This document shows positions 14,336-19,557 of a stretch of 32,000 bases of DNA, one piece after another. Below the pieces are notes generated by a model, which was not told the DNA's origin, made no database searches, and saw nothing but the letters and a program-made list of their open reading frames with translations. Source of the DNA: Candidatus Saccharimonadota bacterium (GTDB lineage: Bacteria > Patescibacteriota > Gracilibacteria > BD1-5 > UBA2023); NCBI GenBank assembly GCA_042852035.1, contig BAAFHK010000001.1, positions 600,001 through 632,000 on the forward strand. Direction: 5' to 3'. Each line of letters begins with the position of its first letter. Within the stretch, counting starts at the first letter, position 1. A program made the position numbers and the translations under genes.

Positions 14336-17300
14336 TTATCGTTTGATAGCTATCTGGATTACGTTATCTTCATCGATTGCCTCTTCCCTCATAGCATCAG
14401 GCAGATCAATCTGTGAGACCAATTTTGAAAGCGTTTCACTCTCGATGAGTGACCCGAAATTTTGAAGAATCGTTTCACTTTCTTCTCATATGATTGAAAG
14501 ACTTATGCGATCAGTAACATTATAATTTGCTTCCTTTCTCATATCTTGTATGAGTCGGATAATATCACGAGCATATCCTTCGATTTTGAGTGCTTCTGTA
14601 ATCTCAGTATTCATGGCAAGCACCATTCCGTATCCACCAATAACATCTCCGACTCACTCAAGAGGAAGATATTCAAGGACGTACTCCCCTACTTCGAGAA
14701 CAAAGTTTCCTACTTGAAGTCTGCCACCATCCAGTTCTTCGAATTCCCCATTCTTTGCTCTAACAATTATTGACTGAACATCTTTTCCATATTTCGGACC
14801 AATTTTCTTTGCATCAGGCTTTGCAATTTTCTTTGCAAGTTTCTCTGGATTTTCAAGTTTTATACTCTTAACATTTAACTCATCTCGAATTATAGATTGA
14901 TAATACTCACTTAATTCAGCCGTAATAGTAACAGATTCGAGTGGTTGGCGTACTCGGATATTTTTCGATGACCTAAGAGCAAGACCGAGGGAAACAATAT
15001 GTTCACATCTCTCCATATCCCGATTAAGCTCACTATCGATAAGGTGACGATTCGGAAAGGTGACATACTCGAGATGGACCGACTCACGATTTGTAAGGCC
15101 CTTATAAACACTTTCCGAGAGAAATGGCATATATGGTGCCATAAGTTTCGAGAGTTCAATGAGAACGGTATGTAACGTTGAATATGCTGACCCCTTATCG
15201 TCACTCATTCCAGATTCCCAAAAACGCCGGCGAGAAAGTCGTACATACCAATTCGTGAGGTGATCCATATAATCTACGATAGAACGACATGCCCGGGAAA
15301 CATCATATGAATCCATAGCATCATGTACTTGCCCGAGAAGCACTTGAAGCTTCGAGAGAATCCAGCGATCGAGTGGATTAACTAGCTTTGTCGTCATAAG
15401 CCTATACGGATCAGCATTTCCTATTATTGTACGAAAGTGAGCTTGCTCTTCTCATTGCCCAAAGTACTGGTTTAGTACTGGTCGCGATGTGCCAGCATGA
15501 GCAACGATAAGAACTCGTTTTCATTTATATTTCTCAAGAAGTTCCGTATATGCACCGATAATTCTCGATTCAAATTGCTCCACATTCTCAAGGGAATTAT
15601 TTTTATAAATTTTCCGAAGCTCAAAGTGACTTGAGTCAGGAGGGAGTCAGGCAAGCTCTAAGATTTCTTTATGAGTCTTTCCAGCGTACTCTCCTGCTTG
15701 GTGTTCGGCGAACTTATCGTCTTCAGAATATTCTCAATGAAATCAAATTTCATCACCAATAAGATGGGCCGTATCACGTGCACGAATCTTTGAAGTATGT
15801 ACAATTACGTCAAAGCTTTTTCCCATTTCTCTGAATTTTTGTCAGGCACTTCTTGCTTGTTCTTTACCTTTCTCAGTTAACTCAGGATCATCCGTTCCAT
15901 CACTCATACGACCAGCAGCATTTGAGGTACTCTCTCCGTGACGAGTAAACCAAACTTCGGTATCATCAGGGGTCCATCCATCGATATTCGCATAGGTCGT
16001 AAAAAAACTATACGTGTTCCAGAGTGGCAGCATTACTCCTTTCACGGTGTCGATTATCTGTTCCTCTTTAAAATCCATATCTCCACCTGAAAGCAGTGGA
16101 CTATTGAGCATATAGAATCGAATTGGATCTGCGCCATATTTTTCAATTGTCGCACGTGGATCAGGATAGTTTCCATAAGATTTCGACATTTTTCGACCAT
16201 CATTTCCATTAATCACCCCAGTAGTGATAACATTGGTAAATGATGGGGTAGGATTTGGCTCATTATTTGGGTTTACGAGCACCCCAAGAACATGCATCAC
16301 ATAGAACCATGCACGCACCTGCCCAACATATTCAGCGATGAAATCTGCTGGAAAACTTGCCTCCATATCCTTTTTATTCTCGAATGGATAGTGCATTTGT
16401 GCATATGGCATAGACCCAGAATCCATCCAAACATCAAGAACCTCAGGTATACGAGTAAGTGGCTCTCCATGAAGTATAAGTCACTCGATGAGCTTACTTT
16501 CATTGATGTTAAAATGTCCATATCCATTAACCTTTATCGCAAATCATCCAGTCGTTTCGATGAGATTTTTTGATGCCTCAACTCTACCCTCTTTATCATC
16601 GAGAGAATATAGAATAATTACCTCTTCAACATATTTCTTTAAAAAACTCATGTCCGCTTGGAGGTGTGAAAAAAATTCTTGTAATCGCTCATGCTTTCCT
16701 TCTGGTGGAGCAACTAAGACAAGCCTCTTTAAGGAAATTTTATTTTTAATGAGCATATCAATCGAGAACCTACAACCAAGTGAGTGAGCAAATAGAGTAT
16801 CAACTCAATCAATATTCTCAGTAAATACTTTTTCCCAGGTCTCATAATTTACATTTTCTCCCATCTCGAAAGTAGGACAAGAAATCTCGATTCATTGTTC
16901 CTGAAGATTCTTGAGTGTTTGATTAAAGAAATCCACTACACTCTCAGTTCTTCGGAATCAGTGTATGCCGAGTACTTTCTTTGGTTTTCTGGCATTTTTT
17001 GGTGCAAGAAGAATAGAATCAATATAGGGTTTATGAAGATTAAATTCTATTCCATCAAATTCTCCTCACTTAAAAAAGTATTTTTTATCTCCTTCTATTT
17101 CGCGTCTTTCAAGTTGTCCATAAGCCTCATTCAGCTCAAAAATTTGATCTCGTGAAGATACAACCACTCTCTCTGAGGCATCCTTATTTTGCCACACTGG
17201 CATCGGAGCCCCCCAGTATCTGGTACGAGAAATACACCAATCTGGCGCAGACTCGATTCATTTTGCAAATCTTCCGAACTTAAGATGCTCTGGGAACCAA

Positions 17301-18601
17301 TTAATCTGTTCATTTGCGTTAAGAAGCTTCTCTTTCTGTGATTGGATATCAATAAACCAAGATTTCTGTGCCTTCTGGACGAGTGGAGTTGCTGATCTCG
17401 GACAAAATGGAACACGGTGAGTAATTCCCTCATTTTTAAAGAGAGTTCCATTCTCCTTCATTCGTTCGATATTTACCCTATTGGCTTCTTGGTAGTGAAG
17501 TCCTTCATAGTCGAAAATCTGAGATGTGTACTTCCCTGCTTCATCCATCGCTTCGGAGATAAAAATCCCCTCCTTTTTCGCAAGCTGAAAGTCAACATCA
17601 CCGAATTCTGGTGCCTCATGTCAGATACCAGTACCATCCGTATCTGTGATAAAATCTGCATGATAGATCTTGTGGTTCTTCTCGCCATTTTTCTGATAAT
17701 AATACTCTGGAAATGGTGGGATATATCCGAGTCAAACGAGCTCACTCCCCTGAAATTCTCGCTCAACACTATATTCCCCTTTTCACTTGAATACACTTTC
17801 TGCTCGATTTTTCGCGACTATCATATACTCCCCATTGTATGTTATGAGGACATAATCAATATCATTTCTCACTGCAAGGGCCATATTCGCAGGTATAGTC
17901 CAGGGAGTTGTCGTCCAGGCAAGTGCCTTCGTTCCTTCTGGGAATCGATCATTTGGTTCGAGTTCGAATTTCACGGTAATCGCTGGATCATTGACCTCCT
18001 GATACGTATCATCCATCGCAACTTCAAAGTTCGAAATCGGTGTCCCGAGTTTCCAACTATAGAGTGATACTCGTTTTCCTTCATAAATAAGACCCTTATC
18101 CCAAAGTTGCTGAAATACCCACATTACCGATTCCATATATTCTTGGTCCATCGTACGATAGGCTCGGTCCATATCGACCCAACGTCCAATTTTATCAATA
18201 TACCAGTCCCACTCAGCTGAAGTTGATTGTGTGTATTCATAACATCCATCAATAAATTCTTTCACGCCACGCTCTTCGATTTCTTTATTTGATGCAAGTC
18301 AGAGTTTCTTCTGAACTTTCTCTTCGATCGGGAGACCATGACAATCCCATCCCCAAACACGATCAACACGCTTCCCACGCATTGTCCAATATCGTCCCAC
18401 TACATCTTTAACTATAGACGAGAGGAGTGAACCATAGTGTGGCGTCCCCGTAATAAATGGAGGACCATCATAGAATCGATATGGATTATCCTCAGGACGT
18501 GAATCAATAGATTTCTTAAAAGTATTATTTGCTTTCCAGTAAGCAAGAACTTCACTTTCAAGTGCTGGGAATGATTGTTTTGGAGAAATAGAAGGAAACA
18601 T
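14336..18601 (-). CDS. ileS: Isoleucine--tRNA ligase (type 2 / eukaryote-like) of 1421 aa carrying two inserted enzyme domains
   Basis: ORF-track pieces 18299..18601, 17783..18265, 17258..17548, 16544..16756, 15842..16426 and 14654..15397 are all in one frame and are joined only through TGA. IleS motifs present: FYDGPPFITGTPHYGS, WGWDCHGLPIE, WCISRTRYWGAPMPVW, NLHKPYID, DVWMDSGSMPYAQ, GRKMSKSYGN, PLWNTYSFF, NPLDRWILS, LTNWYVRLSRRRFW. The stop is TAA at 14336-14338. Confidence 0.9.
15398..15961 (-). other. In-frame insertion 2 inside IleS: complete histidine phosphatase (phosphoglycerate-mutase/CobC-like) domain, about 188 aa
   Basis: It lies between IleS ...FFTTYANIDGWTPDD and ...VNPLDRWILS. 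The sequence is EVWFTRHGESTSNAAGR (RHGES at 15929-15943)...LTEKGKEQARSA[G]...FDVIVHTSKIRARDTAHLI...AEHQAGEYAGKT...ESRII...RVLIVAHAGTSRPVL (second catalytic His at 15497-15499). Confidence 0.7.
16478..17005 (-). other. In-frame insertion 1 inside IleS: complete small alpha/beta serine hydrolase domain (YdeN/RBBP9-like), about 175 aa
   Basis: It lies between the IleS motifs HKPYIDSI and GEPLTRIPEVLDVWMDSG. The sequence is ...KKVLGIH[G]FRRTES...VDTLFAHSLGC (nucleophile elbow, 16772-16789)...LVLVAPP...VIILYSLDDKEGRV...VNGYGHF, i.e. a Ser/Asp/His triad in the canonical order. Confidence 0.7.
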
Positions 18602-18743
18602 AAGACAATAAAAGTATGAATTATAAATTATTATTTTTTATAAACTGTTCTACTAGGGTTCACTTAGCATTAAAACAATTTCCCCCCGATGGCATTGTAC
18701 AAACTAACATTTCTGAGTCAGAAAATTTTTGGAGGTATGCTTT

Positions 18744-19079
18744 TTTATCACTGAATTTTTCAGTAATATTATCTTCCATAACTTCAAAGTCAGGAAGACT
18801 CGTTCAAGAAGATATATAGAAACTTGTGACTCAACCTATTGAACCTGTTGAATCTCATAATCCACCATAAAGATCGCGAACTGAAATCTCAGAAAAAACA
18901 AATTCTTTTCTTTCATCTTTCTTTATGTTCGCATCTTGGGAAGGGTTGAGAAGTTCAGGCTTTTTTGTCTCTGATTCTCGATTAGATGAAGAGTCTTGTG
19001 GTAATTTTGTACAAGCTGAGATAAGCAGAATGAGACTGAGGGACAGGGCGAAATAGATGAGAGTAAAGGAATGTTTCAT
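18744..19079 (-). CDS. Small lipoprotein (111 aa)
   Basis: MKHSFTLIYFALSLSLILLISAC-TKLPQDSSSN... has a signal peptide plus lipobox (LISAC). The frame continues through TGAs to TAA at 18744-18746. Confidence 0.55.
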
Positions 19080-19111: not shown

Positions 19112-19345
19112 CTATAATATCCAGTAATTTATAACCCCGAAAAGGACTATAACAGCGATAAAAATTGTTGTGATAAATATTCACCATTGCTTTGCTTCTT
19201 TTGCAGCTTTCCAAGAACTATATATCCAAAATATCTGTGCTACTAGGTTAAAAATCAATCAGTATTCTGGCATTTTAAGGCTCATAAAGAGAAATCCTGA
19301 AATCGTAAATCATGTAAGTCATACCTGCATTATAGCATTCAACAT
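19112..19345 (-). CDS. Small hydrophobic protein, about 3 TM (up to 77 aa; the start may instead be the ATG at 19328-19330)
   Basis: The sequence is MLNAIMQV[G]LT[G]FTISGFLFMSLKMPEY[G]LIFNLVAQIFWIYSSWKAAKEAKQW[G]IFITTIFIAVIVLFGVINYWIL, ending in TAG at 19112-19114. It begins immediately after the T-box terminator. No family was recognised. Confidence 0.4.
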
Positions 19346-19527
19346 AAAAAGCACACATTAATAAATTGTGTGCTTTTGGCTCTCTTTCGAGAGAGGTACC
19401 ACCGAAAGCTGATGCTTAATGTAGATTTTTTGACGAAGCATTTCAGCTTCGGACAGGTCTAATCTGCACATAGGCATTTCTTCTGTCAGCTCGCGGGTGA
19501 TAGCCGCGTGGGACGCTTTTGATTAGG
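19346..19527 (-). promoter_or_regulatory. T-box riboswitch leader, Ile-specific (AUC specifier), with antiterminator/terminator switch
   Basis: On the minus-strand RNA the T-box core ...GCUUUCGGUGGUACCUCUCUCGAAAGAGAGCCAAAAGC... has GGUGGUACC at plus 19395-19403. It folds as helix A1 (CUUUCGG/CCAAAAG), a 7-nt bulge UGGUACC and helix A2 (CUCUC-GAAA-GAGAG). The A1 3' strand overlaps the 5' arm of the terminator AAAAGCACACA-AUUUAUUAA-UGUGUGCUUUU+U (19346-19376). The upstream hairpin CGCGG-CUAUCAC-CCGCG (19492-19508) displays AUC followed by A in its loop (codon = plus 19499-19501). Local GC content is clearly above background. ileS lies downstream in the same orientation. Confidence 0.7.
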
Positions 19528-19530
19528 GTT

Positions 19531-19557
19531 AGTATAATGAAAATAAAGGAAATGCAA
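19531..19557 (-). promoter_or_regulatory. Candidate promoter driving the T-box leader (TTGCAT-N15-TATACT)
   Basis: On the minus strand TTGCAT lies at 19552-19557 and TATACT at 19531-19536. It overlaps only the end of the upstream gene. Confidence 0.4.

Follow-up and report, generated by a model that had tools for sequence, protein, structure and literature searches.

A putative tRNA-Ile-sensing T-box leader with an ultrashort Stem I and no Stem III upstream of ileS in Gracilibacteria

Can a T-box riboswitch act by transcription attenuation when its Stem I is ultrashort and its Stem III is missing? This question is raised by a leader RNA on the minus strand of a 32,000-nucleotide (nt) stretch of DNA from a Candidatus Saccharimonadota bacterium (GTDB lineage Patescibacteriota; Gracilibacteria; BD1-5; UBA2023; contig BAAFHK010000001.1 of assembly GCA_042852035.1, positions 600,001 to 632,000), which is referred to below as the window. 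The leader lies upstream of the gene ileS, and an earlier note made from the sequence alone had described it as an isoleucine-specific T-box. Transcriptional T-boxes generally need the elbow platform of a long Stem I for fast tRNA capture (PMC7583486, PMC11297988). An ultrashort Stem I is known from translational, mostly actinobacterial T-boxes, and all of those described earlier act on translation (PMC7583486, PMC11297988, PMC1262725). Stem III has been called indispensable for the binding of the tRNA 3′-end in glyQS (PMC7583486). Our comparison of related leaders points to a T-box recognising tRNA-Ile, a reading in which we have high confidence; that the leader senses tRNA-Ile by transcription attenuation seems probable.

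The leader is about 165-175 nt long, and its decoding module takes up about 90-100 nt. Its parts in the window, from the 5′ end, are as follows.

19560: end of the upstream open reading frame (ORF).
19531-19557, minus strand: promoter-like pair TTGCAT (19557-19552) and TATACT (19536-19531) with a 15-nt spacer, conserved in relatives.
19488-19517, minus strand: Stem I with a kink-turn (K-turn)-like base, closing stem AGC (19517-19515)/GCU (19490-19488).
19492-19508, minus strand: Stem I helix CGCGG (19508-19504)/CCGCG (19496-19492).
19497-19503, minus strand: specifier loop CUAUCAC, Ile codon AUC at 19501-19499, then A at 19498.
19452-19487, minus strand: Stem II, lower helix GACAG/CUGUC, upper helix UGC/GCA.
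19457-19482, minus strand: S-turn-like internal loop of Stem II, AAGAAA (19482-19477) opposite GAUUAGAC (19464-19457).
19431-19451, minus strand: Stem IIA hairpin CGAAG-CUGAAAUG-CUUCG, then UCA; the 3′ part is F-box-like (YCGUCA).
19410-19430, minus strand: A-rich linker ending with the purine motif UUAAGCA (consensus UCAAGUA).
19372-19409, minus strand: antiterminator, consisting of A1, bulge and A2.
19402-19409 and 19372-19379, minus strand: A1, 5′ strand GCUUUCGG (19409-19402) and 3′ strand CCAAAAGC (19379-19372), with one C.A mismatch.
19395-19403, minus strand: T-box core GGUGGUACC.
19395-19401, minus strand: T-box bulge UGGUACC, with an extra U at 19394.
19380-19393, minus strand: A2, CUCUC-GAAA-GAGAG.
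19346-19377, minus strand: intrinsic terminator of 11 bp, AAAAGCACACA, a 9-nt loop and UGUGUGCUUUU, with a U tract at 19350-19346 (5 U).

The T-box core, antiterminator, terminator and specifier hairpin were all found where the earlier note had placed them. A simple terminator scan misses the terminator of the window, because its loop has 9 nt and the scan allows 8 nt at most. Within the 32-kb window, GGUGGUACC has no second exact copy, and the bare 9-mer is statistically insignificant. When one mismatch was allowed, at least two matches occurred in 30 of 100 shuffles. As the 9-mer is unremarkable and Rfam reports no T-box, the case rests on comparative evidence.

With the N-terminal part of IleS as query, we obtained 38 loci from the Candidate Phyla Radiation (CPR), nearly all of them in metagenome-assembled genomes of Gracilibacteria, and one Enterococcus locus; single loci are cited below by L numbers. 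Scanning metagenomes for a DNA pattern yielded 16 further loci that were genuine, besides four chance matches inside coding sequence. A covariance model was seeded with 15 compact leaders, and 44 related leaders were recovered overall. They include 41 Gracilibacteria ileS leaders, one Saccharibacteria ileS leader and one valS leader, and their scores under this custom model range from 58 to 192 bits. The leader is present at 31 of the 38 CPR ileS loci from the genome collection and on 16 metagenome contigs. The window itself contains exactly one match (187 bits), which spans 19345-19524 of the minus strand.

In the 44-sequence alignment, which had been fitted to the covariance model, standard pairs occupied 96.8% of the cells, compared with 81.5% in shuffles and 32-53% in slid controls. 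Compensatory (two-sided) changes were found at 26 of the 36 modelled pairs. The covariation exceeded that of all slid controls, and none of 500 shuffles reached the observed values; the covariation among homologous leaders that the earlier note had advised looking for is present. Every top-ranked column pair of a mutual-information scan fell within the proposed helices. Independently, RNAalifold recovered Stem II, Stem IIA, A2 and the terminator from an unfitted MAFFT alignment. The family consensus of the 5′ part reads AAA-AGC-NNNN-GA-GCGG-YYAUCAN-CCGC-GA-GCU. It is followed by Stem II, by Stem IIA with CCGUCA, by the A-rich linker up to UCAAGUA, by the antiterminator in the order GCUUUCGG-UGGUACC-U-(A2)-CCAAAAGC, and then by the terminator.

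Stem I of the family is a hairpin of 4-6 bp closed by the 7-nt specifier loop. Its columns 19/75 hold CG in 31 leaders and UA in 10, and all cells there are paired. The closing stem of the K-turn-like base covaries from AGC/GCU to GGC/GCC (AU in 33, GC in 6 and GU in 4), and the K-turn-like motif has a tandem GA..GA but a 4-nt bulge. The promoter-like pair TTGCNN-15/16-TATACT/TATAAT is kept in 33 of 37 related leaders, and in these the -10 element ends 15-19 nt 5′ of the AGC at the Stem I base. This spacing leaves no space for a Stem I longer than the hairpin observed. The distal elbow platform of Stem I (AG bulge, distal loop, interdigitated double T-loop motif) was not found in the leader family. 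The ultrashort Stem I with a terminal-loop specifier, as proposed in the earlier note, is thus supported by the nearby -10 element and by the Stem II, Stem IIA and F-box that follow.

Stem II showed compensatory changes at all of its eight pairs, with up to six pair types per position. Its motifs AAGAAA and NUAGAM are conserved and match the GAA/AGUA S-turn positions of the consensus of RF00230, the Rfam T-box model. In Stem IIA, 99% of the cells are paired and three of the five pairs have double changes. The motif CCGUCA/CCGUUA is conserved 3′ of it; the F-box has been defined as CCGUCA, part of the IIA/B element (PMC7583486). The S-turn and F-box motifs occur where the RF00230 consensus and the described structure of N. 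farcinica have them (PMC7583486, PMC10651847). The IIB pseudoknot pairing (GUUC/GAAC) is confined to a compact subset, and the other leaders, including the window copy, have a 5-bp hairpin. This echoes the published observation that a hairpin can largely replace the IIA/B pseudoknot (PMC7583486). A mutual-information search for a partner of the Stem IIA loop returned only the pair 268-277, by which leaders of the compact pseudoknot type can be told from those of the hairpin type. AAGUAU was rejected as a pseudoknot partner of the 8-nt Stem IIA loop; only about 60% of the sequences would allow this pairing, and it is incompatible with the stem itself. Conservation is also seen in the purine motif AAGUA, with A293, A294, G295 and A297 nearly invariant. 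A2 covaries at all five pairs. The UGGUACC bulge is invariant except in three oral GN02 genomes of Gracilibacteria (L009, L010 and L012), which have UGGUAAC, a rare change in ACC, and an A1 5′ strand of GCUUUGGG.

The earlier note had read the specifier as the Ile codon AUC followed by a purine. Every leader linked to ileS or ilvA was found to have the loop YYAUCAN, in which AUC takes positions 3-5, and the base after AUC is A in all but two identical contigs (L046/L056). One leader stands directly before ilvA, the gene of threonine ammonia-lyase (568 bits), in a complete Patescibacteria chromosome (L016, OZ245922.1, 3124-4359), where ileS lies 2.9 kb further on, past a tRNA-Ser gene. Isoleucine synthesis begins with IlvA. 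The Saccharibacteria ileS leader (L022, 64 bits) has the loop UUAUCAG. The leader on metagenome contig WNFM01029289.1 (L042, 171-430; 58 bits) has the loop CUAGUCC, in which GUC (Val) occupies the positions of AUC, and its downstream gene matches valS at 1e-51 versus ileS at 1e-18. Judged from these sequences, the codon tracks the regulated gene, which is the classical signature of a T-box specifier. A73 is the discriminator of bacterial tRNA-Ile and tRNA-Val, and would suit the U of UGGU. The architecture of L042 is otherwise as in ileS leaders and its T-box core is almost identical; past A1 it has a 5-bp hairpin without a U tract, then a long inverted repeat before the start codon.

How the leader might control expression was judged from its 3′ part. 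A hairpin followed by a U run (at least 4, 4-8 U) was seen in all 40 distinct Gracilibacteria leaders examined. In the terminator 93.7% of the cells are paired and double changes occur at five pairs. Because AAAAGC belongs to both the 3′ strand of A1 and the 5′ strand of the terminator, A1 and the terminator are mutually exclusive. The predicted energies are -12.9 kcal/mol for the terminator and -4.1 kcal/mol for the antiterminator. In the window no Shine-Dalgarno (SD)-like motif was found between the hairpin and AUG, and hence no SD sequestrator. SD-like motifs were found for only 1 of 21 long ORFs of the window, and the genome appears almost SD-free. Since the hairpin with its U tract is universal in the Gracilibacteria copies and there is no SD to sequester, transcription attenuation is the best-supported mode, in agreement with the earlier note, which had taken the leader for a transcription attenuator.

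The Saccharibacteria leader L022 (5781-5990) differs in several parts. It has a Stem III hairpin AAGAG-CCAU-CUCUU, an A1 of GCUGGA/UCCAGC, and as output a weak hairpin with UUUU, followed by a GTG start that is preceded by the SD-like GGGAG. This leader suggests that the family of short-Stem-I T-boxes is wider in CPR, with different outputs.

The anatomy, the conservation, the covariation, the match of codon and gene and the exclusivity of A1 and terminator are established; tRNA binding, sensing of its charging and termination are what we infer. Transcription would start a few nucleotides upstream of the 5′ AAAAGC. The nascent RNA would fold into a compact decoding module, with the short Stem I bent by its K-turn-like base and AUC-A presented in the 7-nt loop. 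Stem I might dock on the S-turn of Stem II, aided by Stem IIA and the F-box, as solved for the actinobacterial ileS T-boxes, and the anticodon of tRNA-Ile(GAU) would pair with AUC. If the tRNA is uncharged, its ACCA-3′ could pair with UGGU of the bulge, stabilise the weak A1-bulge-A2 structure and keep AAAAGC from the terminator. RNA polymerase would then go on to transcribe the membrane-protein and lipoprotein ORFs and ileS. With a charged tRNA, or with none, the more stable hairpin of 11 bp with its U tract would form and the transcript would end at about 19346.

Several observations weigh against this reading. A Stem III helix, the absence of which the earlier note had overlooked, is lacking in 41 of the 44 leaders, where only 3-4 nt separate the purine motif from A1. 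Hairpins at the Stem III site are present only in L003, L020 and L037, as inserts, and in L022. A mini Stem III (AAGY/GCUU, 3-4 bp) is possible at most, and it overlaps A1 and has invariant partners. The G.U wobble at the base of A2 is a steric sensor of the aminoacyl group; it was not found in any leader, the pair being C-G in 29, U-A in 13 and G-C in one, preceded by an invariant unpaired U. The earlier note had called the antiterminator textbook. A1, UGGUACC and A2 are indeed present, but the invariant extra U makes the bulge effectively 8 nt and A1 has the C.A mismatch, which recurs in 38 of 43 leaders. A1 is complementary but nearly invariant and shows no covariation, so that the alignment neither supports nor contradicts it. 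At the K-turn-like base, the window copy, L004 and L051 have CA..A in place of the tandem GA. A tRNA search of the window and the 38 loci found no tRNA-Ile gene; the searched loci have tRNA-Lys and tRNA-Ser genes only, and the window has none. Four Gracilibacteria ileS loci (L005, L006, L029 and L034) yielded no leader in the 2-3.4 kb searched upstream with filters off. Either the leader is not universal in Gracilibacteria or it sits further upstream in these four. To these points are added the Rfam result and the predicted folding of the free leader.

The earlier note had recommended a search with RF00230 and had named a missing match as evidence against itself. A search of the window with RF00230 gave no match at the gathering score; a 700-nt slice gave none even when matches up to E<=10 were admitted, and 10 CPR loci likewise had none. 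The Enterococcus locus, used as a positive control, was detected with 97.3 bits against a threshold of 93. Because this control was detected and the custom model gives 58-192 bits, we take the miss to reflect the composition of the Rfam model, not the absence of a T-box.

For the free leader, nearest-neighbour prediction favours a long-range helix of the specifier region and the T-box sequence (-57.6 versus -29 kcal/mol). It rests on a 14-bp complementarity of 19395-19410 with 19489-19506 on the minus strand (GG-UAUCA-CCG-GA-GC versus GCUU-CGG-UGGUA-CC), in which the 5′ GG of Stem I, the specifier loop and the 3′ strand of Stem I face the 5′ strand of A1 and the bulge. This helix is 95.9% paired over the 44 leaders, but it lacks covariation and is disrupted at the positions where Stem I covaries. 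Evolution thus supports Stem I as the fold, and the long-range helix was rejected as the main fold and kept only as a speculative OFF-state. In such a three-state T-box, which we regard as rather unlikely, the tRNA-free long-range helix would be an anti-antiterminator that locks the OFF state, and binding of the anticodon would block its invasion and license A1. If true, this coupling could replace the kinetic help of the elbow platform and Stem III, and would explain how a T-box without them decides co-transcriptionally. The near invariance of Stem I and A1, in contrast to the free covariation of Stem II and A2, would be accounted for as well.

Among the alternatives to attenuation by a tRNA-Ile-sensing T-box, the one that survives best keeps the same sensor and places the decision mainly or additionally at translation. 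The hairpin 5′ of AUG would occlude an A/U-rich ribosome landing site; in the antiterminator form its 3′ half would be single-stranded and the start codon accessible. The distance from the U tract to the first start codon is 0-23 nt in most leaders and 0 nt for the window copy, the genome is nearly SD-free, and a translational decision would agree with the earlier ultrashort-Stem-I T-boxes (PMC7583486, PMC11297988, PMC1262725) and with L022, where the SD-like GGGAG stands before the GTG start and the hairpin is only weak. However, an 11-bp stem containing G+C and followed by 4-8 U is a canonical intrinsic termination signal, it is kept in every Gracilibacteria copy, and occlusion alone needs no U tract. 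We consider a translational decision improbable, with the reservation that both modes can coexist. With the hairpin abutting AUG, start-site occlusion is plausible as an additional effect.

It is much less likely that the leader is an evolutionary relic of T-box descent or a constitutive attenuator, which no longer binds tRNA and works only by leaky termination or by forming a stabilising structure at the 5′ end. The lack of the Stem I platform, of Stem III and of the G.U sensor, elements described as essential in model T-boxes (PMC7583486), would agree with this. However, strong purifying selection is evident, with compensatory changes in all decoding helices, and AUC, UGGUACC, the S-turn and the F-box do not vary, although the IleS proteins share only 41-94% identity. 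Moreover, the codon switches to GUC before valS, and a relic would not keep its specifier matched. Chance resemblance of a GC-rich intergenic hairpin region containing GGUGGUACC, with which the insignificance of the 9-mer alone and the missing Rfam match would agree, is refuted by 44 homologous leaders with full multi-helix architecture and covariation, and its probability is negligible.

The closest known systems are the actinobacterial ileS T-boxes of M. smegmatis, M. tuberculosis and N. farcinica, with structures such as 6UFM (PMC7583486, PMC10651847). The likeness described here was drawn from published descriptions. Both groups have ileS as target, a short Stem I that presents AUC in its terminal loop, and no distal elbow platform; the actinobacterial Stem I has a K-turn at its base, and ours a K-turn-like one. 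In both, Stem II with its S-turn motifs is followed by Stem IIA/B and the F-box, so that the class feature of a short Stem I with terminal-loop specifier plus Stem II and IIA/B is found in our leaders. The decoding module of about 90-100 nt, the UGGN bulge between A1 and A2 and the frequent inserts at the A2 tip are also common to both. In contrast, the output here is a terminator with a U tract and theirs is an SD sequestrator. Stem III is missing here in 41 of 44 leaders, and the IIB pseudoknot is mostly a 5-bp hairpin. The host here is a nearly SD-free CPR/Gracilibacteria lineage with UGA as Gly. The actinobacterial ileS T-boxes with an ultrashort Stem I were reportedly studied by Sherwood et al. 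in 2015.

With the canonical Firmicutes T-boxes (RF00230; B. subtilis tyrS, glyQS), the leader shares the competition of antiterminator and terminator, the match of codon and gene, the UGGNACC bulge, the S-turn and F-box motifs and the location 5′ of an aminoacyl-tRNA synthetase gene. It differs from them in having no long Stem I, specifier internal loop, AG bulge, distal loop (interdigitated double T-loop motif) or Stem III. It also has an extra bulge U and a C-G or U-A pair instead of G.U at the A2 base, and its terminator shares only the 3′ strand of A1, not that of A2. Like the minimal T-boxes of the glyQS type, it is naturally reduced, and in both cases parts of the canonical architecture are dispensable. 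The glyQS type, however, naturally lacks Stem II and IIA/B but retains Stem III and a long Stem I; here the distal Stem I and Stem III are lost, and Stem II and IIA are retained.

The mechanism is of a known kind; the novelty lies in an ultrashort Stem I without Stem III being joined to an intrinsic terminator, in a recoded and SD-less CPR host. The translational model of TBDB is applied to Actinobacteria only. In the full-text literature searched, we found no report tying T-boxes to CPR, Patescibacteria, Gracilibacteria or Saccharibacteria, although mentions elsewhere are possible; this agrees with the earlier note, which was aware of no characterised T-box in the lineage. If our reading is right, T-boxes would extend to CPR/Patescibacteria, that is, to Gracilibacteria and at least one Saccharibacteria genome. 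Annotation based on RF00230 misses the CPR leaders, so that amino-acid regulons there are currently invisible. The leader family would be a natural counter-example to the rule that transcriptional T-boxes need an elbow platform, that ultrashort ones are only translational and that Stem III is indispensable (PMC7583486, PMC11297988). A compact RNA of about 165-175 nt would allow a direct test of the kinetic and structural arguments. A sensor of Ile charging before ileS, and before ilvA in one genome, would be a rare regulatory foothold in organisms thought to be host-dependent for amino acids.

The earlier note had assigned genetic code 25 to the host. Under code 11 the ORFs of the window total 5,780 amino acids (aa), and under code 25/4 they total 21,830 aa; therefore, UGA is a sense codon in the host genome, and it is Gly in the host CPR/Gracilibacteria lineage. 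Three genes follow the leader in the window.

19112-19345, minus strand: ORF of a 77-aa three-helix membrane protein (code 25 translation), whose ATG (19345-19343) abuts the U tract.
18621-19079, minus strand: lipoprotein ORF of 152 aa with a signal peptide and the lipobox LISAC (code 25 translation).
14336-18601, minus strand: ileS, 1421 aa, with inserted Ser_hydrolase and His_Phos_1 domains (Pfam).

The leader is therefore not directly before ileS, as noted earlier; the membrane-protein and lipoprotein ORFs lie between. The Pfam matches of IleS were tRNA-synt_1 (6e-117), Anticodon_1, His_Phos_1 (8.5e-32) and Ser_hydrolase (1.8e-7), and the lipoprotein ORF had no Pfam match. Across the loci the first gene after the leader varies. 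L008 and L015 have ileS itself in this place; the window, L031 and L033 have the membrane protein, L021, L058 and L037 have a HAD-like protein, and the remaining loci have other genes. In every ileS locus ileS lies within 0-2.9 kb downstream of the leader. That the leader controls ileS itself is likely, but only likely, because the intervening genes vary and the window has candidate internal promoters.

The 77-aa membrane protein had no Pfam or NCBIfam match even at E<=10. It belongs to a CPR-wide unannotated family of about 82 aa with 55 matches, in which P26, G29, W40, Y42, N73, Y74 and W75 are invariant. Its AlphaFold2 model is a three-helix bundle with a predicted local distance difference test score (pLDDT) of 96 and no significant match in the PDB. 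A SemiSWEET identity was rejected, as the match reached only about E 4. Homologues in Saccharibacteria and other Patescibacteria do not adjoin ileS or a T-box.

The IleS relatives of this lineage are 1,113-1,956 aa long, with whole enzyme domains inserted in the synthetase (the window, L025, L023 and L020). In L025 (6001-11871), a NUDIX domain is added, and there are two matches each to His_Phos_1 and Ser_hydrolase. Insertions are also seen in the leaders. In the leader regions of L003, L017, L018, L020, L024, L026, L027 and L047, short palindromic inserts such as CGTCATTGCGAGGNACGAAGCAATCCAG and CCGTCATCCTGAACTTGNTTCAGGATC were seen repeatedly; in different leaders they occupy the apical loops of Stem II and A2 and the Stem III site. 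They look like miniature mobile hairpins that might be tolerated at exposed helix tips.

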